Assembly (NCBI GenBank): GCA_964658305.1
Contig: OZ210885.1
Span: 9,486,001-9,550,000 of the forward strand
Reading direction: 5' to 3'
DNA length: 64,000 nucleotides
DNA from: Leptogorgia sarmentosa
Taxonomy: Eukaryota
Positions 527 to 50,074 of this stretch are shown piece after piece. Position 1 is the stretch's first letter; every line of letters begins with the position of its first letter. A model generated the notes under the pieces. That model saw nothing but the letters and a program-made list of their open reading frames with translations, was not told where the DNA came from and made no database searches. A program made the position numbers and the translations under genes.

Positions 527-1819
527 CTGAAATATTAAAAGCTGATTGTTTATTTCGAATAATAATTTGTTCTACCGAAAAAAGGCAAAGACGATCTCTG
601 CCAGACCATTGATTGTTCAAGAAACCAATGTTATCAAAATATGCTGTATAATTTATTCATAAATGATCAGGGAAATATGTCGTATTCATCAAATGTTAGT
701 GCAAATGAAAACTACATCTAAGGTCACTTCATATTTTGCAAAAATCTTTCTATTACTATGTCGACAACAATTAAGAAGATAGATAGATAGATAGATGGGA
801 GCCCTATAGACATATTGTGGAGTTCAGCACTCTTGATAATCAACGAAAGCAACAATACAAGATAGAGTAATGATAGATGTACAACAGGTAAAATTATGTT
901 GCATGGGATGTCATACGCTTCGGACTAGATTTTAGTCTAAGCAAGATGAACAAAATCTTTCACCAATTAGTAATACTGCAAAATTCAATCGCAAAAGGTT
1001 GCAAAGTACGGAAAATACAGTTGACAAATTTGTATACTTTTTGTATTTGCGTGAATTAGTAACAAATTTAATTATCAGTTTCAGCGCCCGTCATACAAAT
1101 GGATACCAATCTGCAACTTCGCACGGCTATATTTTCCGTATTCAGCACTTTTCGCATTCAACACCCAGGACGCGGGCGAGTGGGCCGGGCAGGCAACTGC
1201 ACCCCCCTCCCATCCCCTCCGATGACTTGCCAGAATTCTGACAACGATCTTTTTGTAAAAATGAAGGAATCTAGACTTCAACAAGATTTATTAGGTCTGT
1301 CCCCAAACCCGCCTAGAGCGTAATCACTAATGTGCATTTTCAAGCGCCCAATCGTGAGTTTTTTTCGATGTATTATTGGATGTATTATCCAACATTTCAC
1401 AACCAAACATTTAGTTTTTCTAATTTTGATAACGTCACAAAATGTCCTTCGTTTATGTTTAAAATCTTTCTAAAGCGCAAGTCGTCTATTGCATTGCAGA
1501 TAAGCTTAAAGTATGTAGCACGGCTATAGCCAGAGCAAATTAGTATAATGGTGAAATAAATAGAAATTCTTATATGACTGAAAATTAACTTCATGGAGTT
1601 CATGCTCGCTATCTTTTCAAGTAATCAAAAACCGATTTCAGAAAGCAGTACGTCTTAGTCTGACTGTGAAATATTGTATTAAATGTATACAATGGATAAG
1701 ACAGAATATGGAGCGTCATAAGCTTAATGTTATATATTGGGTCTTCGTTGTTGCCTTGCCATATAACGATGCTTTCGAGAAAATACCGGCAAATTAAATA
1801 GTTCCTGGAGTGAACCCAC

Positions 1820-2090
1820 CTGATGTCCGCGGAATGACCTTCATAACAGGAAAGTGACTTTCCAGTGTGGAAACACCACAACCTCACACAACCTTTAAGG
1901 TCTCCAGAAATAATATACTTTTTATCACCGCTCACAGCAATACTGGAAACAAGACATCGAACGTCAAGGGTACGAATTTCCTGATACGTTTTTAAATCCC
2001 AAATTTTTATTGTCCCATCGTATGAACCAGACACAAGCATTGGATTGTTCTTTCCTGAATCTAAACGAGAAACTTCGCACTTTAGTCGAA
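1820..2090 (-). CDS. Duplicate of WD40 exon 10
   Basis: Same translation as 8184-8454 at an offset of 6364. Confidence 0.6.
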
Positions 2091-7600: not shown

Positions 7601-10600
7601 TCTGACAACGATCTTTTTGTAAAAATGAAGGAATCTAGACTTCAACAAGATTTATTAGGTCTGTCCCCAAACCCGCCTAGAGCGTAATCACTAATGTGCA
7701 TTTTCAAGCGCCCAATCGTGAGTTTTTTTCGATGTATTATTGGATGTATTATCCAACATTTCACAACCAAACATTTAGTTTTTCTAATTTTGATAACGTC
7801 ACAAAATGTCCTTCGTTTATGTTTAAAATCTTTCTAAAGCGCAAGTCGTCTATTGCATTGCAGATAAGCTTAAAGTATGTAGCACGGCTATAGCCAGAGC
7901 AAATTAGTATAATGGTGAAATAAATAGAAATTCTTATATGACTGAAAATTAACTTCATGGAGTTCATGCTCGCTATCTTTTCAAGTAATCAAAAACCGAT
8001 TTCAGAAAGCAGTACGTCTTAGTCTGACTGTGAAATATTGTATTAAATGTATACAATGGATAAGACAGAATATGGAGCGTCATAAGCTTAATGTTATATA
8101 TTGGGTCTTCGTTGTTGCCTTGCCATATAACGATGCTTTCGAGAAAATACCGGCAAATTAAATAGTTCCTGGAGTGAACCCACCTGATGTCCGCGGAATG
8201 ACCTTCATAACAGGAAAGTGACTTTCCAGTGTGGAAACACCACAACCTCACACAACCTTTAAGGTCTCCAGAAATAATATACTTTTTATCACCGCTCACA
8301 GCAATACTGGAAACAAGACATCGAACGTCAAGGGTACGAATTTCCTGATACGTTTTTAAATCCCAAATTTTTATTGTCCCATCGTATGAACCAGACACAA
8401 GCATTGGATTGTTCTTTCCTGAATCTAAACGAGAAACTTCGCACTTTAGTCGAACTGGCACAAAAAAAAACAAGGGAAAGCAAAGTACATGATATCCTAA
8501 ATATATTCAATAACTCGATCATTGACAGGGGAGATTTTCATTTATGCATTCTGCATGTCCAGGCAATGGATTCTGCAGCAGTCCATATACAGAAAGTTGA
8601 TTTTGTTAATACCGTTAGGATATTGAAGAGAAATTTACGCAAAAAAGAAATCATTCTTCTAGTTAGTTTTGCATATTATGTTAAAGCTCATTACCTCCGC
8701 GAGGAGGTTATGTAATCATCTCTTCGTTGCCTTATTTTTTAAATATGAATGCGTAATGAAGTTATTTGATATTCTGGATGTGTTGTGTGAATTAGTATAT
8801 TTACGGTACCAAATTTGGGTGAAAATTTATTAAGCCCCACCATCTACTTAGTCCCCTCTTCAGATAAGCGGCCACCTGAAAGCAGGAAAACATAAATATC
8901 CCCCAAGGGGCTAAATAGAGGAAATACGGTAGTCTTTCTTTAAGCTGATCGAATAGTTAATTTCCCAATACGTGTTTAATTGGATTTTATACAAAACACA
9001 CTTCTTTCTCGTTTATTAAAAATAAATAGGAAATACGCAGTCGTAATCAACGTTTAATTTGGGCCGCAAAGTTCGAAAGTTTTGTTGAGGAAATATTCGA
9101 GTACCCAAATTTATAATTGCTATTTCTACTTATATCCATACTATGTACTGTAAAGTTAAGGAAAAGTCAAATGAAAGATCGTAAGAACTCTGCGTTGGTG
9201 CAATTACTCAAAACCAGAGTGTAACAGTACTGAACAGTACGTACACTGTAGCACGTACCCCAATGGGAAATTTTCATTGCTGCATTTGATCATTATTAGT
9301 TTGCACATGTATTCATACTTATGTTTGGGAACATAACTGTGTTTAACTGCTCTTAACTGTTGCCTAACTGCTCTTTCATGTCAATGAGTAGCTGTGAAAA
9401 TTGACTGATTAAATTCAATTATTATCACATTTATTCAAGCAACTAACCTACCAAGTTCTAACAGTACAGCACAATGTTTGTCACAACAATTATAAAACAG
9501 GTCTAACTATATAAATTTTGTCTGTTGGAATAAGAGGATCTGAGGTCAAGATGGACAAGATAAGTCAAACGACACCTGGCTATATACCTTGGCAATGGAC
9601 AGTATATCTAAAACAATATTACTTTACAAACAACATTCATGTTGGCTTCCATTTGTTACTTTATCTATATAATTTCATAAGTCAAAAACAAATGATTATA
9701 TGATTAGTCATATTCTGTTGTCAGCTTGTAATTCAATTCATTCTCCTGTAATTGAATTCTATTATATATTGTAGTTCAATTCGATATGTGTGCATTAATT
9801 AGATACATGTGAAACGGCTAGAATTGTTCCTGGTCGATATATCCCTATGAAATGCATTTCAGAGCAGTGGCGTAGGATGGTGGGGCACTTGGAAGGAGCC
9901 CCCCCTAACTTTCACGGTTATAAGAAAAAGTGTCATTTTAAAAAAGAAAGTCCCCTTCTTTCATGCTTAGGATTTGTACAGCTTTCTGATAGACATGAGA
10001 ATTTGCCCAAATGTACTAAAATATCCTGTAGGATTCCATCATTCACTAGCTTTTATATGTTTTGTTTGAAAATGCCGCCTTGCTGATTGCAAGTTGCAAA
10101 TACAGTAATAAGTTTTCCCAACCAAAAATATCATGTCTTCTGGTTGCTAAGTTATCGAAAGTTAAAGTTGAAACTTATGTAAAGTTGCAACATTTAATAG
10201 TAAAGATTTGGATTCTGTTCTCCCTGTGCCTCCCCCCCCCCTCCCCCCCAAACTACAACTTGATTCGTATGCCCTTGTTTCATAGCCTGCTTCTACTTTT
10301 AGGGCAGACTATTATTACTTACAAGAGGTCTAAACGCTAATAAAATATACAATACCCTGCCTAAATGCCAAGTCTTTTGAATCTACTTGTACATTATCAC
10401 AATTTATACATTTAAGGTCTGCGACACAGGGTAATCAGTTGAAATATACACACACAAGCAAATTGTCTCAAAGTATATTTAGAAAGCTAGCATAGATAAA
10501 TCTAATGGCCATTTTAAATACTCTTAGCATATACAAATACAACCAGCCTAAAAATTTGAAAGAAATCAGAAAGTCCTAAAATAGTGCTTGTACATGAAAG

Positions 10601-22600: not shown

Positions 22601-25600
22601 ATGTTTACGCTACACAAATTTTATTGAGATCGATGTTAGTTTTGAAGGAATTTCAGCTGCGAAAACATGGTAGAAAATGCGTTCGGTTAATATTGTCGTG
22701 TGTTTATGACGCTAGAAATCTTGTTTATCACGATCGTACGAACATGGGTAAATGATTAAATTTTCCTTGATTCTTTAGCTCTCAGAAAGTATCGTTAGAT
22801 TTCTTGTTGGATATAACATAATAGCATGATCGTTCGTGTAAAATTGGCTATTCGGAGTATAAGTAGGTTTTTACGAAGTTTTCAAAGCAAAATTGCGTAA
22901 AATCTAGTCGAGAGGCTCAAAACGAAACCCATTTTAAAAGTGATCACATGTCCTATACTTTTTAATTTTATGGCAATTTTAGCAATGAAAATTCGCACCG
23001 ATACGAATTTCGCTCAATTTGTAAGCGTGGTGTATATTATTTTGTCCACGTTGTCTTCTCCTAAAATGCCGTGTGAAAGTACACTTGATCTACTTTGATT
23101 GCTTTCAACTTGCATTTACGTTATTCTTTATATGCAACAGAAGTAAGGAAAATATAGCATAACCAAGAATAATAATTGGCTATCTTTAAAACCCGGAACG
23201 GGTAATCGCGGAATGGAATGGAACGGACAAAACTCGGAATGAGAAAATGCGGAATCTTTAAAACCCGGAATGAGAAAATGCGGAATCTTTAAAATCCGGA
23301 ATGAGAAAATGCGGAATCTTTAAAACCCGGAATGAGAAAATGCGGAATCTTTAAAATCCGGAATGAGAAAATGCGGAATCTTTAAAACCCGGAATGAGAA
23401 AATGCGGAATCTTTAAAACCCGGAATAAGAAAATGCGGAATCTTTAAAACCCGGAATGAGAAAATGCGGAATCTTTAAAACCCGGAATGAGAAAATGCGG
23501 AATCTTTAAAACCCGGAATGAGAAAATGCGGAATCCTTAAAATGCGGAATCTTTTTAGAGAACCATGTGCACACTGCCATATGATACTGCAGTGGCTGCA
23601 CAGTTTTTCGTGAGCACGTGAAAGGGGGAACTGCTTAGAAGGTAAGATATATACAATCTGTTTCAATCTGACGTTTTTTACAGTTGTTCATCATGTTCGT
23701 ATTTTTTGAATAGTTTGGTAGATAATCGGGGATCGTTTCGTTAAAATTTTGACACTTGTGTATCTGCATAAACGCATAAAATTTTAATTATAAGACACTT
23801 GAGTAAACAGTAACAATTGTTACGGAAGCAGAGCGCTGTAGCCTAAGTTTGACACTAAGATCATTCATTTTGTGGCACTTAATTTTGCTCAAAAACACTT
23901 TTTTGCCTCCTTTAGGTCACCTGTAACTATGTATTAGTAATTTGCTTTGGTTAATACTTGTATACCCCAACCCCTTAAGGGGCTTAATCTCGAATGGCTG
24001 CCAAACTCCCTGTTCTCACACAAGAGAGGCCACAAAGTGCAGAACTTATCCCAGGTGTTCCACCATTTATGTGGGCATCTGTTCAAAATAAACGACTACT
24101 TGGAGAAAGAAGCTTTGGTGAGGTGTTCGTTGGGAAATATGAAGGGCATGATGTTGTTGTAAAAAAACTGAAAAGGCAAAAAAGTCCAAGGTCAAAGGAT
24201 TTATTCATAAAAGAGGTAAATATTTTAAAGGACCTGAAATGTGATAACATTGTGAACGTTGAAGGTTTTTGTTCCCAGCCACTGTCAGTCATGTTGGAAT
24301 ATTTATACTTTGACTTTAAGCCATTTGGAATTGAAAGTGGTCCCTTAGCATCCCTAACTGACTACCTAGAGTTTGTTAGTACTCAAGATCATGTTGCCCA
24401 AATGTCATGCCTTCAACTGAAAATTGCCACTGACATAATGGAGGCTATAGCATTTCTCCACAGCAGAGATATAGTTCATAGAGATATCAAGCCTGCAAAC
24501 ATTTTGGTTTCAAATAAACATTACTGCGAGTTAGAGGAGGCATCGGCTATCGAAGAAGCATGGCTAAAGGAGGGGATAGTCTGCAAACTAGCTGACTTTG
24601 GTGAAAGCAGGTCTGCAGTACATCAAACTGCAGCAATTCACCATACAAGGACAACAAACTTTGAAAGAGGGACACTTGTGTACAACTCTCCAGAGATTTT
24701 AGCTGCCCAAAACTCGTTATCCTTGAATGATTTGAAATGTTGCGATGTGTGGTCCCTGGGTATGGTCATGTTTATGCTCATTAATCCCGATGTGGAAGCC
24801 CCCTATTCGTTAGAGATTGAGGAAAAACAGGTTGATACAGTTTCTGAGGCAAAAACAGTTCTTCAAGACTTCATGAATATTGAGAAGAAGACCGAGTATT
24901 CTGCTAAATACAGTATCTTGCGTAAAAGTCCAGACTGGTTGAAGATTGAACAAGCTTTTGATTCCTGTACCGCTTTCAAACTGGAGGATAGGCTAACTGT
25001 GGTTGAATCACTTAAGATTGTTAGTGTTGCAGAGGAAAGACAGCATGACACTACCAAAGATCACAACACTTGTAGTGAGCCGGAGATTAGCGAATTGGGA
25101 CAGGATTCACAGGTAACTGAGAATTGCATCTATTTCTTAAAATGTCCCTTTTCCTGGAAACCAATATCGACTATCCAGTATCTAGCTTTACTCTGTTTTT
25201 AACAGATGTCATCTCTTTTTAATCTTGCTAGCATTATATTGACAGTTGGTAGCATTACATTTTTAGATATTGTGGGCTTTGTGGCATTAGTTAGTCTACG
25301 TATGATCAATGAAGGTCGAAATTTGCTGTGAAACTGAAATAGTAAAACTAAAGTCAACTTTTTTTAAGGTTTTTGTGCCAGGAAAGCGAAAGTTATCTGC
25401 ATGTACGCATATACCTGTATCAGGTAAGTGTCAGGGGAACATAATTCCCAGTCTGCCCACATGTTTCCAACAATAACAAATACCGCGAAAAAATGACGGT
25501 TAACCGCTCAGATCTATCACTAAATGATCGTGGAACATTTTTTGTGTAGTGAGAACGATAGAATTAACAGTTTCAAGCCCTCTGGCGAGGCGTACAAGGA

Positions 25601-28600
25601 CGATGCAATGACACCTGTTTTCTCGTGGCACAGCAAAGCGTTTACAAGCGAGGAGCTTGTTGCAATCCTCCTGGGAAGTTATGAACCCGAGCATACTTGC
25701 ATCTGCCAACTGTCAATGTTTCCCACAATGCGTCATTCTTAGTTCACGTTAATTCGTTAGAGCACCGAGATGACATAAAATGCGACGATATGGGCTCGTG
25801 GAGACACAATGGAACTCCGAAGCGTAGATTCTTGGTAATTTTTGATCAACAAGAGATAAAGAAGATATCTGCCACGAAAGATCGAGATAAGTCACCTTTA
25901 TTATCCAAAACGGAGAAGATCTACGAACTGAAGAGAGCGTATTACAAGGACTGTTCTGATGAATCCGTTCGCAAGATAGTGTCCGAACTACATGGTACGG
26001 TTGTCAAACATACACTGCTAATCAATTATTGCATGCATGTGGTTGAGCAGGATGTTCAGAAGTATCGAAATCAAGGTCAATTTTGCCTGTAACTTTCATT
26101 CGAAATATATATAACTATCCGCCTATAACTTTTATTCCAAATTTTGTTGCATTTTCCGTGCATTTATATGTGTACTAGCTGTTGCCATGTTCACTAAAAT
26201 GCTCATTTTTCGTTTTTTTTAGAAATGGGAGGTAGTTCTTGCCCATACATTCTTGTACAGTACCTTTTTAGTGGAAAAGGACGAAGTCGAGCGAGTTATG
26301 CCCCACGGTAACGCGAAATCAAGGCAGTCGTATAGACGTATATTACCTAGCAGAAGGGAGAAACTGAAAAAGTCCGTGCTCGAAAAGAAGACGGCGAAGG
26401 AAGTCCTTGATGAGGTGTACTGCGCATCAGGCGACGTAACAATGGCCCGGTCATTAGGCCAGTTACCCAGAGGACCGGGAGACATGTACAATGCCAGACA
26501 TTCTGCAAAACAGTCCCCCGGCCTTGTGAGTAACACTTCATCAGTTCCACAGAGACAGGGCGAAGAAAATTCCAAGGGAGTCCAGTTGAATAACGTATGG
26601 ACAAGAGAGAGGAAGAGGCGTCGAAAGACTCGGCGTTCATACGTGAGTGCTCGATACATCCTGACCTCTTGGTTGTGCTCGCGAACGACCAACAGCTAGA
26701 AGAGCTTGTTCTATTCTGCACGTCCCCATTAGAATTCTGCGTTTTGGGAATCGATCCAACTTTCAACATTTTCGATCGGAATATCAGTTTGACTGTGACA
26801 ACTTACAGAAATTTAAAACTTGTAAATCCAAAGACAGCGAAACCTCCAGTGTTCGTGGGTCCACTAATGATGCACCAGCGCAAGGATTGGAAAACTTACT
26901 CCAAATTTGCGTATGCTCTGACAGCAGCAAAACCAGAATTGGGAGGAGTTTCAGCCTGTGGCACTGACGGGGAGAAGGCGCTGATTGATGGGTTCAAACG
27001 GCATTTTCATTATGCCATATTTCTCCGGTGTTTTCTTCACTTTAAGGATAACATCAAGCGAGAACTGACTGCCAGAGGCATCTCTGGTGATGCCAAAAAC
27101 GATATCATCGCTGAAATATTTGGCAAGCAAGAGGGGTCCACAAAGTTCGAGGGGCTGGTGAATTGTGAGACAGACGACGAGTTTGAGTCGAAACTTGAGC
27201 AGCTGAAACTAACCTGGGAAGACCGTGAGGCAGCATCTGGCAACAAAACGAAAAAACAGTCCTTTTTCGATTGGTTTCTAACAGAAAAGGTATCTAAAAA
27301 TTCGTGCACACAAACAGGGTGCTCTCATGAAAAACCCTACTGTAGATACATCAAGGGCACCACATGCCAAGGCGTTAGGCCTAGTTCATTTTTTCCGTGT
27401 TCCTGAGTTATAAAAACACTTGTGGAAGTTTGGGAGAAACTCGAAATTGGGTAGAAACACTCACACTTCGTGCTCGTGTTCCCACGGAATTTCTCGTTTC
27501 TCCCAAACTCACGGAAAATGTTTTCTATTTCTTAAATAGTCATGCAGACTCTTCGTTTTACATTGTCATAGAGGTCAGTTTTCAAACCTTTACATAGATT
27601 TTGTATTATTACCAACGACCCCATTTTTGTTATTACTAGGCAACGGACATGAAGGATTCGATGCTGAAGAACATCCGAAGAGACGCGGGCCTAGGAGATC
27701 CTCCGACAACATATACAAACAACGATCCCGAGGCTGCGAATTTCATGATAAAACATGGTTTGCTCTTTAATGCCCAGAAGCCCCACGAGTTCATCGAAAA
27801 GATCAAGAATATTATCGAAACGCAGCAGAGGAACGAGGATCGGGCGGTTTTTGGATTGGGTCCTTACAAGGTGCGAAAAGAATTGGCACACCTTTCACTC
27901 GAACATGTAAAGAGAAGTCAGTTAAGCCATGCTCAAATGACGAGCAAGATCGCAGCATTTAAGAAAGCCAGTATGGCAAACAAAAACGATGTGGTGACAG
28001 CGGCACAACTGGAGCAAAATGACAAGTCGCCAAACAGGATCGAAATAAGCGCCAACGAGAGTGGCATAAAGACAGTTGCTGCGCCCATAATAGAACATAT
28101 ATTTGCAAAAGCAAACAACTTGTTAGCAAACCAAGGCAATGTCATTGGTAAACCTGGAGCCAACGATGGTTCATATATAGTCGCCGGAAGTTCGAATAAC
28201 GTCCACATTGTTACTCCTGGTCGAGGTGGTTCTTGGTCGTGTGACCGTACTTGCGTGAACCACTCTACGAAGATTTGCGAGCATGTGTTAGCCGTTGCTC
28301 AAATCACGGGGCAACTGCAAGAGTTTCTGACGTGGTTCAAACAGAAGAAAGGCCCATCGATGATGGGAATGGTGGAACAAGCAGGCCCGAAAAATGCTGG
28401 AAAAAAGCCTTCAAGAAGGAAGCGTACAAACGCGAAACAGCAGCCAATAGTAGAATACGTGGATGTACTTGGCAATGATTGCGACGACCAAGTTGGGTCT
28501 TCGGCATCCACAAGCAGTCAGACTCACCATCCATCCGCGATGTTACCGCCTACTGCCTCCCCTTATACCCCTTTCCACAAACAACACCACAATCCATCGT

Positions 28601-31600
28601 ACGCATCAGTGATACCCATTGATATGCGAAGCTACCCGCAAGTGAGCACACCTGGCGATCCACCAAATATGTCCACCACCAGCTTTTCCTTCCAGGCACA
28701 TCAAATGCACAACAAATTTTCGCCATTACCACCTAGAATGTTGGGCAGCGTTCCACCGAGCACTCAATATTCACAAGCGAGCACATCTGGCCATCCACAA
28801 AACATGTCGGCCACTACCAGTTGTTCCTCCCAATCACATTTACCAGCTCAAATGAAGAACCAATTTTCATCATTGCATGCATCTGGAATGATGGCCAGCG
28901 CACCACTGCACACTCAACAGTCGTTGTTCATGGGATCCTTCCGCTTAAAATGGGTCGGGGGTTAGGGTTAGGATCTAGAATCTCCAAATGCTATGGCTGC
29001 GCTCGTAACATCCAAAACCCTCCGATTCAACGGCCGGATGACCTGGTAATCGTGTGTCGCGATTTGCGCCAATTCCGAGACCAAACGACAGGACTTCTGA
29101 CGACAAGCACTGCCCCTCAGAATTGTCATTTCCATTTAAATAGGACGTGCGTCTTAACAAGGTACCCCACCTTTATACCCAGCATGTTGGTAATCGACCG
29201 TGAATTTGTACCACTGTTGCAGGCAGAACATACTAACCGGTTGGCGACACGTTTCGGTATAAATGTACCAATGTGATTCATTGACAGACGATGAAAATCA
29301 AGTTTTTGTTACAGTTATGTTAGGTTGAAACAAAGTTATGTTAGGTTGAAAAATGCCCTTCGTAGATCTAGGACATTCAGAAGAGTGGCTAATGGCAAGT
29401 CCAGGATCTTTTTGCTGCCATCTGTAGCATATATATACATATACATTATGACTATGTACTTCAAAGTTCAAACATATTCAATACATACATGTTTAGGTAA
29501 ACAGAAGCTTTAGATTTAGTTATTAATAGACCTGGGGCCGGTTGTACGAAAGGCGTTTAACTTAAACGGCGTTTAAGCATTATCCAACGTATAAATTTCC
29601 TATCCAGCGGATAGTTAACTAGCGGATAAAATCGCGTTGCACGAAGCCCGTTTAGCATCGCGTTTAACTATACGATGGATAAAAACTTACCCGTAAAAAA
29701 CCGGATTTTCCAGTATTTGTGCACCTCAACTTGGTACTTGAGGGAACTTGAGGGTAAAATGTTGCAGATTTCACTCTCGTATAACATCACGCTTCATGAA
29801 ATTCGAAAACAACGGTACGAGTATATTTTTAACTAGAAATACATACATGCAGCAACCCCTCGCCTTACTAACCAATTAATGCAACTATATTTTTGGAACA
29901 TGAAGTACTACAGAGGCTGCCGGAGGTTGTTGTCATGGCAACACGATCGGAAATTCATATTTCTGTAATTTTTTGAAAACAGTCAAAATATCAGCTTTTA
30001 TCTTTGTTTTATTGGCATTAAATTTCGAGAACCATTTGTTATCCGTACGTTATTAGGACTAATATAAACTTGAATTTGGTGCGAAATACTACATTTATTT
30101 GCATAAAACGGTTTAATTAAGTCAGTCTTTGATATGAAACAATTTCCAGCCAATGTTCGCTCGCGTTCTTTTGGGGTAAAGTTTGTAAATATTTTGTGAA
30201 GTCCTGCCTTTAAAATGATAAACTTATACTCTGGAATTGAGCCGTGAATAGATTAAATGCGGCGACGGCGACCTTTCATACAAATAGTAAACTGTAGATA
30301 GTAAATACGCAAAACAAAAGTTCACTGCCGGCAACCTATTGATGAACTTATCTTGTGTTTCAATCCGTAGTCGTTTGTTCCCCTTTCTCAGCGTTTTATA
30401 TCTTCTGAGAAGGCTTTCCAAGTCTTACAGCGTAGGTCTTGTCTTTTTTTCGCCTTTCCAAAGGCCCAAAAGCTTTAAAAAGCTTCGGCTTTTCATTATA
30501 GTCCAGCTTAATTTTGAGATCAGTGATGACCACCCTTACACCCATAACCCAAAATGGCCCCCAAATCCAGCAACTTTGAATCCGCTATAGCGGAATTATT
30601 ACCCTCGCCCCGGGCTAACGCCCGGACGGCGCTTTGCGCCGTGGCTCAGGGATTAATTTTACAACAACTTCAACATTATATAATCCTTGTCCTTGACCTT
30701 GAATTTTGTTGAATACAATTTTTCGAACATTTTCTCTCATATTTTGATTGGCTTAACAAAGTCGCACCGAGCGAACAAAGTTCTTTCCGAATTTTGGGCT
30801 TTTGGCGTCTTTTTGTTTGTGTATTTATGTACGTTTAATATTTGGTCGTCTACAGCGATTGTTCATTTAAAATGGCTTTAGGTTGGAGTTTTACAGCTAT
30901 TATTAAACACGATATATTAAGTGTGAAGCGGGAAAGTCAAAGAATATAACGTATAAACACGCCGGAAACTCGTGCGTTATGAAAGTATAGCAAGGTCGCA
31001 GCCTTTTATTCATTTTCGAGGTGAATTCAGTTTACCTCAAGACAAGTTAGACAACAAAAGTCGATGGTGAGTGCTCACTTGACTTCTTTTGGTCCGTTGT
31101 AGTAAAGACAGTCCCCCCCTTTCTGTCACAATTCTCCTTCGTTAATCCGAAATCCTCATTATCATGTTTTGAAATGTTAATTTATCCGCCGGATAGTGAG
31201 TTAAACGGTCTCATGAGACCGTTTAACTTTATCCATCGTTTAGCCAAAATTTAACTAGTGGATTGCGCTAAACGGGCTTTGTACAACGCAATTTCTCAAT
31301 CGTTTAAATGGTGTATAGCGACTTAAACGCCTTTCGTACAACCGGCCCCTGTTATAAACCGGCATAACAGTCAGTAGTCGAACCTCTGATGTACTATAGC
31401 TCAGAGTGGCAATTATAATCACTCAGTGTTTACAAGTCTATAATCATTTCACCTTTGGCCAAATGGCTCAGTAAATATATTGCGCATTTTCTCATTCCGG
31501 GTTTTAAAGATTCCGCATTTTCTTATTCCGGGTTTTAAAGATTCCGCATTTTCTCATTCCGGGTTTTAAAGATTCCGCATTTTCTCATTCCGGGTTTTAA

Positions 31601-34600
31601 AGATTCCGCATTTTCTCATTCCGGGTTTTCTCCGTTCCATTCCATTCCGCGATTCCATTCCGCGTTCCCCGTTCCGGGTTTTAAAGATAGCCACCAAGAA
31701 TTTGCATTTTTTTTCTGTACTCAATACGTTAGAGTATTAGTATTTTTTGTCGAGGAAATTATGAAGTAACCCGTAAAGAAAAAATGGAATATTTTTAAAT
31801 TTTGTCGAGAGCCTCAAAACGAAATAGGGATAAAAACACTTTACTTCTACCATAGATCACGTTAGTATCATGTTTATTGATATTAAAATTCGCGTTCATA
31901 GAAATTTCAGGGCTCAAACATGAGCAGTATGAGAAGTTCCACCAAAATTTCTTGCAAGCATAATGTAAGCATTGCGAAGCTTGTACGGTAAATTCCGAGC
32001 ACCCACCGATGATGAAAATATTTGCCGGGCTTCATGTTGTGTTTCTTTCTTTGCATAAGAATGACAAAACGTTTGCTGATTTTGCTCTTTATTTCTATAA
32101 TTTTTGTTTTCAAATTTTCTTCGATATTTTGTACTTATTCAAAGCTCGGTAAAAAGCGCGACCCAGTACACCATTGGCGTTGTTGACCGCACCGAAACAA
32201 CTTGAAAAATTCGTGTTGGTGGAGGTAACTGTATAGTATCTTTCAGACGTTTTCTTGCCGTGGGAATCTTTTCGGCCACAAACACAGCATGCATCTCTGT
32301 CTTTTGCTCCACTTGCAAAATTAGATAATGTAAAAAAAACCAACAAAACACCCAGGAAAACAGCGAAATTTTTGTTTATATTCATTTTATTTACATTTTT
32401 CTAAGGGCATTTTAATTTCCCGCCGCTCGCTCAGGGAAAATCACACGAAGGGGGAAAGATTCGCGCGTGGTTCAAGCAAATTTCCACTGGCCTCAATTTC
32501 AAATATATCTAAATGAAAACAAACACTTCTTTGGCGTTTAGTGGTACCAAACCTATCAACAGGAAAATAGGGCCTCATGATGCTTTAGTTTAGTGTTTGA
32601 GACCCACTTGCTTCACACGTGTTGTGGTCAAATTCTGGCCAAGAATCAAAGACCCAAAAGTTAGTTTACATCATCAAATCTGCTTCGAGAAAGGTCTAGA
32701 AATATAGCTTTTAATTTAGATTTCGTGAGCATAATTTGGTTAGAAATTATTTTTGTATTTGATGAGATTCAAAATTTTGTGTTTATTCAAGTCAGGCTTC
32801 AGTGTAATTATAATGATAACCGGCAATGAAATGAAGATATTTCAAAAAGGGTATGGGTAAAATGCGGATACGGACGGACGGATGGCCGCGGACGGACGGA
32901 CGGACGGACGGAGGGATGCGGACGGACGGACGGACGAAAGGGTAAAATGCGGATATGGTCCACAAAGCGTTGAAAAACGTTTTAAAAGCTCCATCCGCAT
33001 TTTACCCCAAAGGGTAAAATGCGGATATGGTCCACAGAGCGTTGAAAAACGTTTTAAAAGCTCCATCCGCATTTTACCCCAAAGGGTAAAATGCGGATAT
33101 GGTCCACAAAGCGTTGAAAAACGTTTTAAAAGCTCCATCCGCATTTTACCCTTCGGGGTAAAATGCGGATATGGTCCACAAAGCGTTGAAAAACGTTTTA
33201 AAAGCTCCACAAAGCGTTCAAAAACGTTTTAAAAGCTCCATCCGCATTTTACCCTTCAAGGTAAAATGCGGATGGAGCTTTTAAAACGTTTTTCAACGCT
33301 TTGTGGACCATATCCGCATTTTACCCCGAAGGGTAAAATGCGGATGGAGCTTTTAAAACGTTTTTCAACGCTTTGTGGACCATATCCGCATTTTACCCTT
33401 TGGGGTAAAATGCGGATGGAGCTTTTAAAACGTTTTCCAACGCTTTGTGGACCATATCCGCATTTTACCCTTTGGGGTAAAATGCGGATGGAGCTTTTAA
33501 AACGTTTTTGAACGCTTTGTGGACCATATCCGCATTTTACCCTTTGGGGTAAAATGCGGATGGAGCTTTTAAAACGTTTTTCAACGCTTTGTGGACCATA
33601 TCCGCATTTTACCCCGAAGGGTAAAATGCGGATGGAGCTTTTAAAACGTTTTTCAACGCTTTGTGGACCATATCCGCATTTTACCCTTTGGGGTAAAATG
33701 CGGATGGAGCTTTTAAAACGTTTTTCAACGCTTTGTGGACCATTTCCCATTTTACCCCGAAGGGTAAAATGCGGATGGAGCTTTTAAAACGTTTTTGAAC
33801 GCTTTGTGGAGCTTTTAAAACGTTTTTCAACGCTTTGTGGACCATATCCGCATTTTACCCCGAAGGGTAAAATGCGGATGGAGCTTTCAAAACGTTTTTG
33901 AACGCTTTGTGGACCATATCCGCATTTTACCCTTTGGGGTAAAATGCGGATGGAGCTTTTAAAACGTTTTTGAACGCTTTGTGGACCATATCCGCATTTT
34001 ACCCTTTGGGGTAAAATGCGGATGGAGCTTTTAAAACGTTTTTCAACGCTTTGTGGACCATATCCGCATTTTACCCCGAAGGGTAAAATGCGGATGGAGC
34101 TTTTAAAACGTTTTTCAACGCTTTGTGGACCATATCCGCATTTTACCCTTTGGGGTAAAATGCGGATGGAGCTTTTAAAACGTTTTTCAACGCTTTGTGG
34201 ACCATATCCGCATTTTACCCTTTCGTCCGTCCGTCCGCATCCCTCCGTCCGTCCGTCCGTCCGCGGCCATCCGTCCGTCCGTATCCGCATTTTACCCATA
34301 CCCATTTCAAAAACTGACGGTGGCCTCACGATGAAACATTCTAAAAATACTCTCCACTTCATGTATTTTCTTGTGATACTTTAATTGTAAACGTCAAAAT
34401 AGGGCCTTGAACAGTCCCGGGGTTTGCATTTCAGCTTTCGGTAGAAGTGAAATCTCACGCCTCATCACAAGTTATTTTGCTCCGCCGTGATTTGTGCTCT
34501 GTCGCTGATATTTAAACCTTTACGAGATAAATATTGTCATCCTCGTTAGGATACGAACATTTCACAGAAAATTCTAATTATTGCAGATTAACTTGTGACT

Positions 34601-37600: not shown

Positions 37601-40600
37601 TTTCATATATAAATTTTTCATCATTTCAGATAAGTTAACAATTTGCATAGGTTCTCGATTACAGAAGGGTCGCTGCCAAGTGAAGCGAGTGGCGACAACA
37701 CGTTGGCTATCTCCTTGCCGTTTTCCTCGATTACAGAAGGCTCGCTGGCAAGGGGAAGCGAGTGGCGATAACACGTTGGTTATCTCTTCATCTTTTACTT
37801 TTAAAATCAGCCCTCTGACGAGTCAAGAGGTTTTCAGAAATGTCGCAAGGTTTGCACTTCATTTTCTTCGATCGTATACGAACAACTCCTTGTGTGTTGG
37901 CAAGAACTCATATGACGTTGTGCAACAGCCACATTGATTCATATCGATCAGCCAGCTAATTATTTTCAATACACGCAACGCGTTGTGCACGTGTTCTGGC
38001 TGTTTTATAATGATCTTTGGCATCTTACTCAACTGAGTGTATTTCCATATTTATTGAGCCAATCACCTTGAATTACCCAAAGCATGCTTTACACGTGCGA
38101 TACGAGGTACTGCGTCATGCGCAGACGCACGTAATGTGACGATTACATTTGCTGTAATTACAGCGTTTAAATTTTGTGGCCTTGTGGTAGTCAAACATTG
38201 TTAACCAACTTCACTGATTGACGGCCCCACTCTAAGCGTTCGCCATGTTGTGTAGAAATTTTAATGCCCCGAATGAATGCTTTTGCATAAATTGAAATTC
38301 CGGAGGGACTTTCCGGCATTGTGTACTCTAACTTGTGGGGCTCTTAGGTCACATTAGTGACATTACTCATCTAGCTTACTTTCCTATTCATTAGAGTAAT
38401 TGCAAACAATGCTGAACAACGATTTATAGCTACAATTGCATAATTTTTGTACATGGGAACATTTTGGGAAGAACACGCCCTCCCCCCAAGTTTACACTAT
38501 GAATGAATGACTGATGTGAATTTTCGCCACTCATCAAAATAATGCAAAATTTCTTCGAAACTTTGCGCTAAATAGTGAGGCAACTTAAATAAATCATAGA
38601 AGAATGAGATAAATTAAAGTTCATTATTTGAATTACCTAGGAGTTGAGGACAGATTGAATCTGGCTTTTCATTGATGACTTCGGCAGAGTACATTAACGA
38701 GGATTTGAGAAGTTGGATTTCCTTCGATTCTGTGTCCACAAAACGAAAATCTGATATTACAGAGAATACGTTGACGTGCTTCACTTTTTGTTTGAGCCAG
38801 TGTAGATCAAACAGCAGCTGAAGTAGTTCACCATGTCGTCCCGAAGAATAAATGTGATAGGGTAGGTACTTGAAATAATAGTCTCTTTGGCAGGTAGTTG
38901 AATTATCATTCCATTCACCATCCACGCACAGGCCACGAAGTGTCTTTACGAACTTATCCTGAACATCATTTAGTGTACCCATGTCTTGAAGTTTTGTCTG
39001 GGCAAAATCCAAAAGCAAGTCGTGTACACGATAGCTTCTCTTTCCGTGGAGTTCAGGCCCTGAAATTGATCGAAATGTTAGGAAATTTGTAATGAGACGG
39101 ACAATTTTTCAAATCGCCGTTGAGTAGCTATGGAAGAAATTGTGCTATCAGGTTTTCGTAAATACGAAATGGCTTAGTCACAATAAGAATAATTACTGGC
39201 TATAGTGAGCCAAGAATAATGCAATATCTGTAAAAAGGCACATAGACTTAAGGTAGTCCTAATTCTAATTCCTAAAAAGCAAAGAATGTTTTTTAATTCA
39301 CATGATTCGCCTTATTATTACAAAACATCAATAAAGAAATTACAATAGACACTAGATGAAAATAGATGGTAGGGCTAACCCACAAACTCCAATAACGGGA
39401 TCCTCCAATACGTTATGTTCAGAACTAGTTAATACATTTACTAACAACATGAACTGGCTTTGATTAATATTAAGCCATGATCAAACGAGATGCAAATCAT
39501 CGCAAGTTTTAACTTCTGGGCCATGGAAACGAGGTGGCAATGATTTGAAAAATGTTGGATAAGCAGGCAATGGAGTCAAATTGTTTAAAAGACACATGCA
39601 AAACATACTCTTTGCATGGATGATACAAGAAAACCATTCAGAGTTATTAACGAATTATTCGCCTTAGATAACATTCTATCTTACGCCTTCTCCTTATATT
39701 TCTGTTAATGAAGTCTTAATGAGAGCATTCATATCATTCAAAAGAATTCTTGACGGTTGTACTAGATGTCTATAGTTGGATGCAAGTATACTCACATTCG
39801 CTTTGCTTCACATGCAAAATCGACTTGGAGCAATGAAAATACGCGGTTAGCAGAAATTTTTTTTGGGATCACTTTGCTCGGGAGGTACTGGGTCGAGAAT
39901 ATTATATGGCAATTCTGACTCTAAACAGAAAATATTGTCTTTTCTTATTTTTGTTTTTCTAATCCAGGTCCAAACAGTAATTCTGACCCTAATAACAAAA
40001 TGCTGAGAAAAAGAGCTTGAAAAAAACAAACAAAATGACAAAAAGCCAACACGCGAGATTCGAATTTGCAGGTTCGCTACTGGCGAGCCGGGACCACAAC
40101 CTCTGAGCCAACTATTTTATATGAATAGATTTTGCAATACAATAAAATTTATAAAGTACGCGCGGTTACTAAGTATCCCAAAGAAAGTGATCCCAAAATA
40201 AATTTCTGCACGCGGTTAAGACACGCAAACGTTGTTCGGTTTAGTTTTCCCGTCAATCCAGGATGAAATCTCGATCCACTTTGCAACCTGTATTACTGGT
40301 TCACTGAATGTTGTAAATGTTCGTGACTAATGACAATACTTCAAAGTGAACTTCGCACTAAATATAAAAATTTTTCGGTGCAAAACTGAATTTTAACAAT
40401 TTTTCATGCAAAACTGTTAAAATATAAAACTATATTTAACAATTATACCATGAGCTCGAGTCGTATATGAGCTGATAGCCGACGAGTTGGCTATCAGCCA
40501 TATACGACGAGAGCGAATGGTATAATTGTTTTATTATATAGACAAAAGGCGAACATTATAAATTTTATTAAAATCATTCATTTGAAGGAAACGCTCAGCC

Positions 40601-43600
40601 ATTTTCAGCCATTTTGTTTTAAGCTCACTTGAGTGAGATCATTAATTCGTCCTACTCACTATATATGAAGTAATAGCTAGTGAGTAGCTCAGCCAATCAG
40701 ATTACAGAATATCTCATATATAGTGCTTGTCTATGTAATAAATATATATATACCTTTTAAGATCAGCGACTTTCTCTCGAGCACAGCAAGTATATCTTTG
40801 TGTTTCTGAGGTTTGCGCGAAGTTTTTCCACTCTGGTTCTGTATCGAACACCACAGCAGCTCGAGTACATCTGACGGTATATCTGTATCCTCTGGAAATA
40901 TAGCCAAATATAGAAACATCTCGCGTACACTTTCGTCTAGGCGTTGATAGCTCACATCAATGACTGCTAAGAGGTTATCATAAGGATAATCGACTTTGGG
41001 AAATAATATACGAATTCTCTCCAGGTCAGCATTTTTAAGATCATCTAAAACATCCTCCCAGTCTTGTTCCGCACGAGTGTCCGTTAAATTTGAACCCACC
41101 AGTGACACAGCCAGCGGTAAACCTCGACACTGCTCTAACAGGTCTGCAATAATTCGCCGTAAGTTTGGCGTTAACTGTTCGTCTGGACTTATCCCGGCGC
41201 TCCGATACAAGAGCCCTCGGGATTTATCTTGTGGCATAATAACAAGTTCGTACTTGGTAATTCCCGAGCCGCAGAGAACAGTAGCATCTCTAGTTGTTAT
41301 TAATAATTGGCATTTGCCAGATAAGCAATTGAATACAGCAGCGTCGTCCACCTTCCAAACATCATCAACAACAACCAAACAATCTTTATCAATCTAAAAA
41401 TGAGTTGAAAACTAGCTCAGAAACCGTATCTGTTAACTGCATTCAAAGGTTGGTAAAATTTACCACTCTTACTAGCCAAGGCATTCAAAGGCTCGCTTGC
41501 AATTTTTTAGTGGCATTTTCTGGCCTTTCTGATATACGAGGCACATGTTGATTTATGACGAATGTTCTGATTTTATTATTTCTGAATTCCGCAACTGGTT
41601 TAGTCTTTCACCTCAATAATAAAACTCGCACTAGAAATCGCTGCAAAAATTGCAAGTGTAAAAGAGTCCCAGCTGCCATCATCTCACCACCAATGCATGA
41701 GATGAATGAGGTTTTTAACGAACTGAGAAAGTAGAGGTACTATTTATCATTTATAGACCCGGGGGCTACATATAATCGTCGAAATATTTCATGAAGACCT
41801 GATGGCTTTAGCCCAAGGGAAATATCATCACTGCATGAAGGAAATATTTTGACACATCAGTCGTATGCAAATATATATTGCTTTCGTTTAACAAGAATGC
41901 ACGAGTTAAGAATTGTGCTTTATTTACAAATACTTACACGAACTGGCTGTACAACGCACGAGAAATTTTCAATACTGAACAAGGCGAAGCCGGGTTAAAA
42001 TGCTAAATTTATTTTAAAAATTAAAGACAAGTAATAAAGCTTACCGCCCTGGGTAAGTGGTCGTGCGAAAGAAAAGACTTGGAAGAATTGCCACTATTCT
42101 ATATTTAACGTCCATCTAACATCAGACTTCTACATTTAACGTCGCTTTAATTTACGTTTACCAACGCTGTACCGGATATATTTTTCTGTATTCGTGCAAC
42201 TTGGCTATTCGAGCTACATCCCATTAAAAATCGTCCCTATCTTGAAAATAGCCCTATCACATTTTCTCACAAACATCAAATATAGCACAGCATACATACC
42301 GTGTATTTTCTTAACCAAGATTGCGCTGCAACAATATCACTGAACGACACATCTCCACCAAGGACTCTGACGAGGGTGTTAATCAGTTTCAAGCGATCAG
42401 GTGTTTGACCAATGTCAAGCCAGACAGCTTGACGAGATTTTGAGACTTCCCAGGCAACAGCTTGGGCTAACACCGTCTTACCGAGGCCTCCCATTCCACG
42501 GATACCAACGTCGCCACCATGACGTCCAACAACACCCACTTTATTTCCCTGCTTGAGTAACTCCAATATCTCGGTTACTTCTGATGGCCTTTCCACCATG
42601 TGAGCAGGTAGATTGCGTAATCCATACGGAACTAGAAAATCGAATAAAATACAGATGATAATTTTGAAATCACTCTGCTGCACGCTTCAAATAATTGTGT
42701 ATACCAGAATGCATAGTTGTAAAATTTAAACTTTGAACATTAATTTCGTTCAATAGTTTACGTCGCTCTGGCATTAAAATCTCTTGCTACAGTTTGCAGT
42801 GTATGGTTACTGAAGTGAGTCTGAACTTTATTTAAACTTTCGCAACAAAAGCAATTTGTAGTGTGGTTTACAGTTATTGATGAGAAGTTTCTACGTTGTG
42901 GCTGTTCCTATTTGGTCGTTTATGCTTGCGCGCGCAGAAGTTGCTAATTGGTACAGTCTTTCCTCGCCACCTGTACTGCAGGGTGAGAGAACTTGGAGTA
43001 CGTTATGATTTTGAAGTGCTGTCCACTGCGTGCAGTGGTGATATAAAGATTTATGAAATATCGTTTTAAAAAATCCGTGTTTCTATAACACTATAGCTAG
43101 AACAAGGGCGTCAATCCTGGGGGGGATGGGGGGACGCGTCCCCCCCCACTTTTTGAAGTGGGGGGGGGGACGAATATCTAATTATCCCCCCACTTTTTAC
43201 CACATTAAAAAAAATTTTTTTTTGGTAATCTTAAAACCCCATGCCTGTATGCTTATATATCGTGAATTGTGAAGTACAATCAACAATCTGAGATCAGAAG
43301 AAAACTATTCGGAGCCTTCGAATAGTTCTGCGAATGAAATCCTCATTGGAAAAGCAATAAACGGACCTCAGCCACGTACACACGTTCAAATTTGCTTTTG
43401 TTTTTACCGACCACTGTATGTACAATGATCAAATCATTTCATTTGCGATTCAAATCTTTTTTTTTATTTATTAAAAATAATACCTGTTCAAATAATACAC
43501 ATGCATTCGACATCGACAAAAAATTCTCATAATTTAGGCAAGAAATTCAGCGGAATAACTTTAGTAACGCTGAAAATGGCATTTGTGCATGAGGTTTCAA

Positions 43601-46600
43601 ATTTCAAAATTTTTCTGGGAAGCATGCCCCCAGACCCTTCTAGAAAGGGGCACGCTTCATTACTATTTTACAACAGACAAATTTTCGCCCCCCCCCCATA
43701 AGCGTACGAGGCGGGGGGACAAGGGGGGCAACCCCCAAAAAATTGAAATCGGGAAATTCGGGCACCGATTTTCAGCATAATTCGGGCAAAAATTTGAGGA
43801 ATAAGGTAATGTCAACAATCCTCCAGTCGTTCACCTGAACGACCGTGCCAAGAAAGTGGAGTTAGGACTCTGAAATCGCCGTTTCCGGCAATCCAGAGGT
43901 TGTAAAAGTTCAAAAATTTCTCGCTCGGCACCAACCATGGTGGCGCCTCGTGACATTTGGTACCCTCAATTTCGGGCAAACATGTTTCTGCCCCCCCCCT
44001 GAAAAAATGTAGCCCTTACGCTTATGGTCCCCCCCACTTTTTGGGACGGATTGACGCCCTTGCTATAGAAACACGAGGATTTTCACGCGGGTTGCGTGGA
44101 TTGCGCGGGAAATTAAAAAACCAAACGAATCTTTGAATGAATGCAATTAAAATCAATAAATTTATCTTTTTTATTGTTTTTAAAAGGCTATTTAATAAAG
44201 GAAATAGAAAACACTTTTTCCGTGTTCCTATAAGTTATAGAAACACTTGTGTAAGTTTGGGAGAAACTCGAAATTGTGTGGAAACACTCGCACTTCGTGC
44301 TCGAGTTCCCACGGAATTTCTCGTTTCTCCCAAACTTCCACGCGTGTTTCTATAACTCTATAGAAACACGAAAAATGTTTTCTATTTCTTAAATTGCATT
44401 CGAAACCATGCTAATATGTACCTACATATACAAATAAGAATTAGACATTCTAGAGTATGATTCGGCTTCTGGACAGCCGAAGTTTCATTGTATACAGGGT
44501 GACTAAAAAAAAAGGTAATCGAACTTCGGCATGCCATTGTGCGTTAATTACTGGGTATGAACGTAATTTTTGCATGGTCATAAAGATCAGGGTCTCAGCT
44601 GTTGAATGAAATGTTTTTTGTGTTATTATGAGCAAAGCAGAATGAATATGAGAGCGATTAAAATTGACGGTCGAAATTGCATATTTTCACCTCTGTGCCT
44701 AAGCATAACAAAAGAAAAATGCAATTAATCACGAATGTGTCATGGTAACAAAGATTATTAATAATTATGCATAATCAGGTCGTTTGTTGAAGGGAAGGTC
44801 GTCATCTTCGAGTCTCAGAAGGAGTTAATTTCGAATAAGTTTAGCCGCAATTCTCACGGGTGAGAATATGCGATTTCGACCAACGATTTTTAATAGACTC
44901 ATACGTGCTCTGTTTTACTCAAAATGGTACAAAAAACTTGTCGTTCAACAGCTAATAACTTGCTCTTTATGACCATATAAAAATTACGTTCATACACCCA
45001 GCAAATAGCGCTCAATGGCATGTCAAAGTTGGATTACATTTTTTGCGACACCCTGTATATCGCGCAGCGTCCATTCCAGTTAGTTGAAGCTTTCAAATCA
45101 TGCTATAGAATAAAGCTATAAACATCATTTACAGCATGGATTTTTAGAAAGTAGTTCAAACGAATAGTGACATCTCGGCAATCAGAGCCTCTAAAGTCAC
45201 AGAAGTGGCAACCAGCAAGCTGACCAGTCTCTTCATACAAGTCACATAATTTTGCCGACAGAACACTTTTCCCATCGCCGGGACCTCCATTTAGGATCAT
45301 AACTCTCGATTTCGTATCGTGAAGCCAATTTTCAAAGTCGTCAAAGAACCATTGTCTGGTTCCTTGAAATTTTCGAATAAGCTGGTCAATCTTTCCATTA
45401 AAGACAAATTTAGCTCATTTTCAGAAGATTTTATATTTTCTACCACAGTTCGCAACTTGACAACTTGGCTTTCAACATTGGCTATACTGAATCTCCTATT
45501 AATGAAGCATCTTAGGACATAAATCAAAAGAAGCATTCAAATACTATCAGCAACATTTAAGCATTCTTGTACCAATTGAGCTGCGTCAACTTTTCACGAG
45601 CGTTTTTTATTTGGTTGTGACCTACGCAGTTAATCCGCCCAACATTAAAATTCATTTTTAGTGATGATGAGTGCGACAGCGCGTACTGCACTGCCAATGC
45701 TTGCGGATTCCCACTAATTCTGGGAAGTGTTAGAAGACATATTGGATTCCTGTTGCCGTTTACTCTAACGAGATATTTTCCTACAAAAAATTCTTAGAAC
45801 GTTGAAGACCGGGAAGGTTCGTGGGGGACAAATTTCGAAAATTGAATGGCTGCCTGATACTCTGCAAATTTTTCCGCATTATATATTCTGCATAAATAGT
45901 TTCCCATCTTCCCTAGTTGATTGAAACACTACCTTTTTTCTCTGCAAAATCTGAATGCTCCGTCCACGGCTTTTTCTGTCGACATTCGATTTCATCTGTT
46001 TTCTCCGCCAGGCGTTTAAGCTCCATTGAATGATGTTCAAGTTTCTCAGCTGCAGACCTTTCAACCTCTTTAATTTTGCGAAGCAGTGTGGATTGTATGT
46101 TATCGAGTTTCTCCTTCACTGGATTTATCTGAATAGATTAAATTGATTTAGTAATATTCAATTTACGGGCTGAAACAAATTTGAAATCACTCTCAACTTC
46201 ACAAAGCGGCTTTAGGTGTGTGATGTAATAATAGTTATATAATCTAACGTTATATCGTATAGGTAATTGTATGGTTTCGAGTGCAATTTGGAAAAACATG
46301 TAGGAGTAAGTTTTTCAAAGACATTCAAAATTGCACGAGTCCAAAGGACGAGTGCTATTTGAAGTCTTTGAAAAGCTCATGAGTGTATGTTTTTTCCAAA
46401 TTGCATGAGAATTTAAATAGAATATACTTGTCTCGCTTTGTTCTGCCGCTAATATACGGAGATGTTTTGCTTGTCCACCGAGCACTTGCTTGGACGAAGA
46501 GAAATCTCTGTCTTGTATTATAAAAAGATTGTCAACATCGACTGCTGTTAATATCACTTTTAACCTGTCTGGTTCATATTCATGTCGTTTCTTTTTAAAT

Positions 46601-49289: not shown

Positions 49290-50074
49290 TATCGTTCTAT
49301 GAAGTAAACATAAAATAATGGTGTTACAATTTTAGCTATCAAAACACAAAGCTTTTGTAAACAGTACAGATTCTTTGAAAGTTTCTTTGAAAATACTGGT
49401 CTGTCCTTTGAAAATACTGTATGGGTAACCCAGTTCTGAAAAACAGACAAGCAAGATTTATACAAATTATAAGAAGAGCGGAAAGTATTGACCATTCAAC
49501 GCTGTCTCCAAATATTCGGCTTCGTGGCCTCGCAGTTTGTTCAGTATTTCGAGAGCGTATTATGGATGGTTGTAAACTGACAAGTGACAACGATTAAATA
49601 TATTTCTTTCGTTATTTGTGTCATTCAAACCGTGTCATTTTAATGTAATAATCGGTTAAAAGTCACTTAGATCATAGACAATCGTCTATGGCTCTATGCT
49701 TAGATTTAAGTAAAACATTGTTCTTTTTACACATAATTGTCCATCCGGAAATATGCATATTCATAGCCTACTGATATAGGGAATAATGAATTGAATAAGC
49801 GTCGCACTTTTGCAACTACAGTGCGGCGGTTAATCGAGGATAATAGAGAACTCAAGCAGGGGACGATTTTAACAACACGGTTGTCAAGGTGACGATGATG
49901 TGAAGGAAATTAATATTCTATTCCGAACAGTTTTTGTTCATTCGTTAGGTTTTTGGGCAATAAAAATTACAAGCATTTAGCTACGGTACTTGCATGCTAT
50001 CAGTAAAATATTCTTAATCTTGCAATAATTAAAAATGAAGTTTTATAGTATGAGATGTATCCTGAAGATATAAT

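Follow-up and report, generated by a model that had tools for sequence, protein, structure and literature searches.

The DNA analysed here, a stretch of 64,000 nucleotides from Leptogorgia sarmentosa (contig OZ210885.1) that is called the window below, harbours a frameshifted copy of a Mutator-like element (MULE) with a protein kinase ahead of its transposase. The explanation that we consider probable is that, in the family of this cut-and-paste DNA transposon, a kinase, often together with a predicted deubiquitinase, precedes the transposase and likely forms one spliced protein with it. The targets of the kinase would be the transposase or the chromatin proteins at the element ends, and the element would thus possess a signalling switch of its own. 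Judged from sequence, the copy in the window is a decayed member of an apparently undescribed kinase-bearing MULE lineage, with or without a viral-tegument-like deubiquitinase (VTD), that occurs in octocorals, a scyphozoan and probably stony corals. An earlier note, made from the letters alone, had recognised the element; its outline stands, but it missed the frameshifted, defective state of the copy and the VTD-like domain of the relatives. The parts of the element are the following:

23178-31692, whole element, inverted ends around a plus-strand kinase and then the transposase
23162..23170, unstranded, left copy of a probable 9-bp target-site duplication, with 7 nt between it and the element
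23178..23552, plus strand, left terminal inverted repeat (TIR), a 25-nt perfect end and 10 copies of a 31-nt subrepeat
23642..23915, plus strand, predicted intron of the 5' untranslated region (5'-UTR), donor 10.6 and acceptor 10.6 by an approximate matrix, frame closed before the kinase ATG
23994..25112, plus strand, intronless kinase exon of Ser/Thr type (RD), Pfam Pkinase E 6e-33, candidate donors 25074 and 25112
25369..25423, plus strand, predicted linker mini-exon of 55 nt from splice-site scoring, with an ATG at 25401 in frame with the transposase
25550..25994, plus strand, first transposase exon, N-terminal conserved domain, phase-2 acceptor, frameshift near 25707
26223..27289, plus strand, catalytic exon, D 26753, D 26966, CxxH 27029-27040, frameshifts near 26262 and 26600
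27640..29276, plus strand, last transposase exon, catalytic E 27730, SWIM-like finger, low-complexity linker, C-terminal Cys/His finger 28986-29150
31479..31692, minus strand, right TIR, 5 copies of the 31-nt subrepeat and a 25-nt perfect end
31693..31701, unstranded, right copy of the probable target-site duplication, the same 9-mer as at 23162-23170

The ends bear out the matched TIRs described earlier. A 19-mer found at 23178 (plus strand) and 31692 (minus strand) has no other occurrence in the window, and with their subrepeats the TIRs reach 200-370 nt, long inverted ends as in the MULE/Mutator superfamily. The TIR pattern has no matches in prokaryote genome contigs or in viral contigs. 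Among about 2,000,000 random pairs of window positions, 234 gave a 9-mer match of the kind seen at the flanks, and the pair is probably an imperfect target-site duplication, its left side possibly changed when an AAT run slipped. In the MULE/Mutator superfamily such duplications measure 8-11 bp and adjoin the TIRs; here the left copy is 7 nt away. Repeat analysis of the window found no separate inverted repeat or duplication bracketing the kinase. The kinase as a separate insertion with its own ends and target-site duplication, the alternative that the earlier note had raised, was rejected on this ground.

The transposase lies 3' of the kinase on the same strand, as previously described, and its D, D, CxxH and E are all located. 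Its exon limits were placed by homology breaks and splice consensus. It is split into five pieces by four frameshifts (near 25707, 26262, 26600 and 28965), and because of them the window copy is non-autonomous. An 11-nt telomere-like stretch of TTAGGG type at 28960-28970 interrupts the last exon at a place where the relatives are continuous; it is possibly an insertion made during break repair. The supposed SWIM domain is a SWIM-like finger by eye (28240-28284, C-x3-C-x7-C-x-H), but Pfam scans gave zero matches to the SWIM family.

The assignment to the Mutator-like elements was correct. In 62 aligned relatives the first D is present in all 62, the second in all 61 that cover it and the E in 55 of 56, and the C and H of CxxH are kept. 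At E<=0.01, 33 of the 62 match PF10551 and 10 match PF00872, most of them below the curated cut-off, and the window pieces have zero matches to MULE models in Pfam. Because the window pieces miss these models, the clade reads as a divergent one. A fold model, made not from the window copy but from P0001, a 67% identical relative (pLDDT 81), places the IS256-family transposase ISCth4 first in Foldseek (E 2.9e-4). In VIA-align, ISCth4 scores Z 11.8 with a root-mean-square deviation (rmsd) of 5.7 over 253 aligned residues, and hAT Hermes follows with Z 9.1. A profile of the DDE exon had zero sequence-level matches among solved structures. In the available part of its description, ISCth4 is similar to MULE transposases and bears a C/DxxH motif (PMC7780238). 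By these sequence and fold comparisons, the element is classed as a divergent MULE of the IS256/Mutator superfamily.

The kinase was described as a 373-codon region with all catalytic motifs, and so it is. Its open reading frame (ORF) spans 23988-25202, the ATG at 23994 corresponds to the start methionine of the relatives, and 23994-25112 makes 373 codons. K57, E74, HRDIKPAN, DFG, SPE, D251 and R333 are in place. Two substitutions, G39R in the Gly loop and P300T at a near-invariant proline, are private to the window copy. The Gly-loop variant GERSFG is thus present, but it is ruled out as a family trait: all 59 relatives covering the position have Gly there, as do the three 97-99% identical proteins closest to the window kinase.

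In 69 related kinases, which were collected through kinase similarity, so that the sample favours intact ones, the HRD Asp is kept in 68 of 68 covered, the DFG Asp in 69 of 69, the beta3 Lys in 61 of 62 and the alphaC Glu in 62 of 62. The Gly loop, beta3 Lys, alphaC Glu, HRDxK, DFG, APE-like Glu and alphaF Asp are near-invariant, and the window copy retains all of them except the second Gly of the loop. HRD-x-K indicates Ser/Thr specificity, and the RD motif indicates control through the activation loop. By its residues, then, the family kinase is predicted to be a catalytically competent Ser/Thr protein kinase.

The sequences also indicate that these kinases form a family of their own, with near-invariant catalytic residues and a shared insert between the catalytic loop and DFG. 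Sixty near-length relatives pass E 1e-32, named proteins from krill and sea cucumber included, and cluster members come from Porites, Pocillopora and Montipora. The closest kinases of solved structure reach E 1e-15 only. A viral source was not found among the 80 viral loci kept, the best of which has E 9e-18 and 29% identity, as against E 1e-40 to 1e-128 for the animal relatives.

The combination of Pkinase and MULE, for which the earlier note had proposed a search in other genomes, was found in gene models of a gorgonian, a scyphozoan and a stony coral. A search for longer relatives of the DDE exon returned 15 proteins, three of which have a kinase domain; the three, like one cluster member, come from the gene models of a scyphozoan, the jellyfish Sanderia malayensis. 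The S. malayensis proteins P0007, P0008 and P0016 share 97.5% identity over 1100 residues and are built of kinase, middle domain, transposase and fingers in that order, and P0009 is a model that fuses a degenerate kinase to the transposase. Cluster look-up of the kinase relatives led to P0259 (CAB4018245.1) of the gorgonian Paramuricea clavata, which consists of kinase, low-complexity linker and transposase and, like the window copy, has no VTD. It is 52% identical to the window copy in the kinase and 64% in the DDE exon. P0349 of the stony coral Pocillopora meandrina carries kinase, VTD and the first transposase domain only; its transposase start belongs to a more distant family member (E 5e-9 versus 0.04 for the best of 500 shuffles). 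Altogether, 5 of 436 proteins match both the kinase and the transposase profile and 3 more match middle domain and transposase, most of the remainder being single-exon fragments incapable of showing a fusion.

Genomic DNA agrees with the gene models. Of fifteen loci fetched with the transposase, L005 and L002 include its first exon and extend a further 4.5 kb or more in the upstream direction. The kinase is present in these two, complete in L005 and in L002 as its last 40 residues at the contig edge, with 15.8 bits compared with at most 5.3 in 1000 shuffles. L006, near-identical to L005, has the middle domain and is truncated; the upstream sequence of L001 and L003 is limited to 1.7 and 0.7 kb, and eight further loci start within the transposase or right next to it. 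In a DDE tree of 148 rows (23 of 171 were dropped for having fewer than 170 aligned residues), all rows linked to a kinase or a VTD fall into one 24-row clade with SH-aLRT support of 98 and are spread across it. The rows outside this clade are mostly fragments; therefore, the absence of a kinase there means little. The earlier note had counted family members without the kinase as evidence against its reading, yet relatives in three species and two contigs carry it, and these comparisons indicate that the kinase is a family-wide partner of the transposase and not a one-off capture.

A second domain follows the kinase in 15 of the 60 near-length kinases, and in 15 of the 18 that have a tail of at least 60 residues. 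Its Cys is invariant in 14 of 14 rows, and Asp-x-His is present in most. When the domain is modelled from L005 (2842-3501, pLDDT 81), VTDs and MCMV M48 take Foldseek ranks 1-5, and VTD entries rank 1-3 in VIA-align with Z 13.5, 11.8 and 11.2, the top one aligning 170 residues at an rmsd of 3.3. An Atlas match to Herpes_teg_N clusters (score 0.86) served as a lead only, the assignment resting on the fold searches. On these models, the middle domain of the relatives is of the papain-like VTD fold and is a predicted enzyme. Six-frame searches of the element and of the whole window with a VTD profile gave no match. In the kinase tree (68 rows, with 9 kinases of fewer than 240 residues left out), a VTD-less clade of 12 rows, which includes the window copy and P0259, has SH-aLRT support of 99. 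Because this clade is nested among VTD-bearing kinases, loss of the VTD in the lineage of the window and Paramuricea copies is the simpler reading. The layout of kinase, VTD and transposase thus appears to be the older one.

A separate long-branch subclade of kinases has no VTD match (P0038, P0210, P0214, P0215, P0217, P0222, P0224-P0228 and P0231). Its sole named member, P0038 of Oculina patagonica, is possibly a domesticated host gene. Another protein, P0036, has the family kinase and a degenerate VTD before a different C-terminus that looks transposase-like by eye. These C-terminal 500 residues were rejected as a member of the present transposase family (hhalign probability 0.4), and no Pfam family matched them. 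P0036 suggests that the cassette may move between elements.

How such a protein might work can be outlined, and for the central steps, namely subrepeat binding, multimerisation and activation of the tethered kinase, we see even chances. A promoter near the left TIR would drive a spliced transcript with a 5'-UTR intron that encodes kinase, VTD where present, linker and transposase. The transposase would bind the 31-nt subrepeats and multimerise, and multimerisation would join the tethered RD-kinase domains so that they phosphorylate each other's activation loops. The substrates of the activated kinase might then be the transposase or the chromatin proteins at the element termini, and their phosphorylation would activate or protect the transpososome. 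In members with a VTD, this domain would take ubiquitin off the complex and shield it from ubiquitin-dependent removal, as has been proposed for Helitron VTDs. In the window lineage, the stronger donor at 25112 may yield a kinase-only product and the weaker one at 25074 the fusion.

The kinase may instead be directed at the host. In this explanation, which is compatible with the fusion and which we regard as possible, though doubtful, it is mainly the kinase-only splice form that acts, phosphorylating silencing, DNA-damage or immune factors throughout the cell, as viral kinases and tegument deubiquitinases do. The pairing with a VTD, a domain common to herpesvirus tegument proteins and Helitrons, would fit, as would the occurrence of the module before the different C-terminus of P0036. 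The kinase also diverges faster than the DDE exon (34-52% versus 57-64% identity for P0016 and P0259). However, a diffusible activity would presumably serve all elements and be less selectable than a tethered one, and the kinases of viral contigs are distant, as noted above.

The tethered arrangement presupposes that kinase and transposase are joined, and the earlier note had left the choice between a fusion and a two-gene element undecided. The strong sites that it had named, the phase-0 donor at 25112 (score 9.0) and the mini-exon, are confirmed, and there is a second donor at 25074 with phase 1 and a score of 4.9, all scores coming from an approximate matrix. The junction that could not be closed before does close from 25074 through the mini-exon to the phase-2 acceptor at 25550, but not from 25112. 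A GAG acceptor at 25554 would be in frame with donor 25112; it was set aside, the homologous acceptor having phase 2 in five loci. In the window and in all five loci that contain the first transposase exon (L001, L002, L003, L005 and L006), this exon opens at an identically placed phase-2 acceptor and lacks a start codon. It needs upstream coding sequence for this reason. In L002, the best exon chain runs in frame from kinase to transposase through eight internal exons, the first two of which are weak, and scores 54.4 versus 47.9 and 47.4 for the other phases. This locus has five tandemly duplicated phase-1 linker exons, about 400-600 nt apart, at 1400-3330, which predict a long hydrophilic linker. 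In L005, the kinase donor and the VTD acceptor are both of phase 0. The gene models in three species and the phase-2 acceptor without a start codon favour the fusion, and we hold with good confidence that kinase and transposase are predicted parts of one spliced ORF.

Under the two-gene arrangement, which we think rather unlikely, kinase and transposase are separate proteins, as in the Oxytricha element TBE or in mudrA/mudrB; the transposase starts from a short exon ahead of it, and its union with the kinase in gene models is a product of the prediction software. This would explain why the strong donor at 25112 leads out of frame and why the ATG at 25401 is in frame with the transposase, and the available text on TBE gives its kinase as a separate ORF (PMC4724952). 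On the other side stand the fusions in the gene sets of three species, the in-frame chain of L002 and the existence of an in-frame route through 25074 in the window too.

Several observations weigh against the explanation that we favour. The chains from donor 25112, which are out of frame, score 16.6 and 16.5 versus 12.4 for the in-frame chain from 25074, and the mini-exon has an in-frame ATG of its own. Every fusion is a gene prediction, and no clear chain from VTD to transposase emerged in L005. TIRs are observed in the window copy only, most of the 60 near-length kinase matches are without known genomic context, and the kinase subclade that includes P0038 has it joined to non-transposase repeats. 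No kinase is seen in the roughly 2.0 and 4.9 kb before the transposase of L009 and L010; the first transposase exon is likewise undetected in these loci, and the upstream region of L010 contains an inverted-repeat insertion. The Dendronephthya models P0001 and P0003 have no kinase either. Finally, the DDE and kinase trees are quick searches without bootstrap.

Least probable by far is that a host kinase was captured once or came to lie here by chance, in the manner of Pack-MULEs, or that it is a domesticated gene of the host: kinase domains do co-occur with many transposable-element domains in predicted proteomes, mostly in few taxa according to the available text of PMC12062965, and some family kinases such as P0038 may be host genes, but the gene models of octocoral, scyphozoan and stony coral and two contigs agree in kinase family, order and strand, the domain itself is of full length, intronless and distant from kinases of solved structure, and the window copy has TIRs and four frameshifts.

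The explanation that we favour, a kinase fused to the transposase, can be extended to a wider and more tentative one, which we rate as improbable on balance. The family would be an old, undescribed lineage of animal DNA transposons with a kinase-deubiquitinase cassette resembling the kinase and tegument deubiquitinase of large viruses. The cassette would have moved between transposase lineages and host phyla (cnidarians, with related kinases in sea cucumber and krill), and alternative splicing would set the ratio of free, host-directed kinase to fusion.

Full-text literature searches turned up no kinase-bearing MULE; they did not extend to Repbase, Dfam or most subscription papers, where a record of the family may exist. 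The main text of a MULE survey lists OTU (in the cnidarian MuDR-6_HM), SET, PMD and FAR1 as extra motifs and contains the word kinase zero times (PMC6446971). The word is likewise missing from the available text of a MULE review (PMC6431247) and has no occurrences in that of PMC13359780 and bioRxiv 2021.09.26.461848. In its available part, bioRxiv 2026.02.11.705288 draws no link between a kinase and a MULE. With MULE/MuDR elements of the IS256 superfamily, the window family shares long TIRs, a D-D-CxxH-E transposase with a helical insertion, zinc fingers and a probable 9-bp duplication, but it differs in its N-terminal kinase, with or without a VTD.

Rehavkus elements are similar in being MULE-related, with a 9-bp target-site duplication, repeats near an end and a Cys/His finger in the transposase. 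In contrast to the window family, they are described, in the available text of the same survey (PMC6446971) and compared here by description alone, from arthropods and annelids, with a PHD finger, a minisatellite before the 3' TIR and no kinase listed. The C-terminal Cys/His finger of the present family is conserved among relatives and has zero matches to PHD models, and the subrepeats lie in both TIRs. Pack-MULEs likewise hold extra coding sequence between MULE TIRs. However, they carry gene fragments and no transposase of their own, according to the available text of PMC6431247, whereas the window element has its own transposase and a full-length, family-wide kinase.

Among DNA transposons, TBE, whose kinase is encoded in an ORF of its own, comes closest as a precedent. 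As far as the available text of PMC4724952 goes, TBE is also a DNA transposon with TIRs that keeps a kinase-domain protein under purifying selection, but it has a Tc1/mariner transposase, telomeric TIRs, an ANT duplication and a separate 57-kD zinc-finger/kinase ORF. With its Mutator-type transposase and non-telomeric ends, the window element is not a TBE. For the middle domain, the comparison is with the VTDs of Helitrons and herpesviruses, whose fold and Cys/Asp-x-His site are those of the relatives' domain. In the available text of Erven et al. (PMC9741609), VTDs are defined by the Asp-x-His site, Helitron-borne VTDs are active, cnidarian VTDs are fused to transposon-associated domains, and protection from proteasomal degradation is proposed. 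The differences are that the window copy has no VTD and that the main text of that paper contains the words kinase and Mutator zero times.

Eukaryotic cut-and-paste transposons have so far been known to carry proteases and chromatin readers. An intact, transposase-linked kinase ranging from jellyfish to corals would be a new form of element-encoded control. With this family one could ask directly whether phosphorylation and deubiquitination serve transposons in timing their mobility or in opposing host silencing, and the TBE kinase raises the same question of function. There is also a consequence for annotation: records list such copies as kinases of the host, P0259 for example under the name MAP kinase kinase kinase, and coral kinase counts may be too high for that reason.

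Two insertions lie inside the element:

27387..27534, unstranded, palindromic insertion resembling a miniature inverted-repeat transposable element, in a transposase intron, 92% identical over 125 nt to 44212-44336
29535..31348, unstranded, nested non-coding element of about 1.8 kb with its own 26-nt perfect inverted ends and CTG on either side

The palindrome has its second window copy at 44201-44388. The nested element is a later insertion in the 3' part, outside the family core; its CTG flanks are presumably a 3-bp CWG duplication, which suggests PIF/Harbinger.

Elsewhere in the window, 57166-57916 begins with an end that is identical to the element TIR at 24 of 30 nt, followed by a tandem array that is 72-74% like the subrepeats. 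By sequence it is probably the left end of a related element, for which the window yielded neither a right end nor a kinase or transposase. At 32840-34380, 72-nt repeats are arrayed in inverted blocks in a foldback-like manner. The segments 1-2446 and 6365-8810 are 99.96% identical duplicates with a WD40-like exon and represent a recent duplication or an assembly artefact. On the minus strand, 38614-41393 and 48603-49331 contain exons that resemble, by eye, an immune gene of the APAF1/NB-ARC type, together with a further conserved domain.

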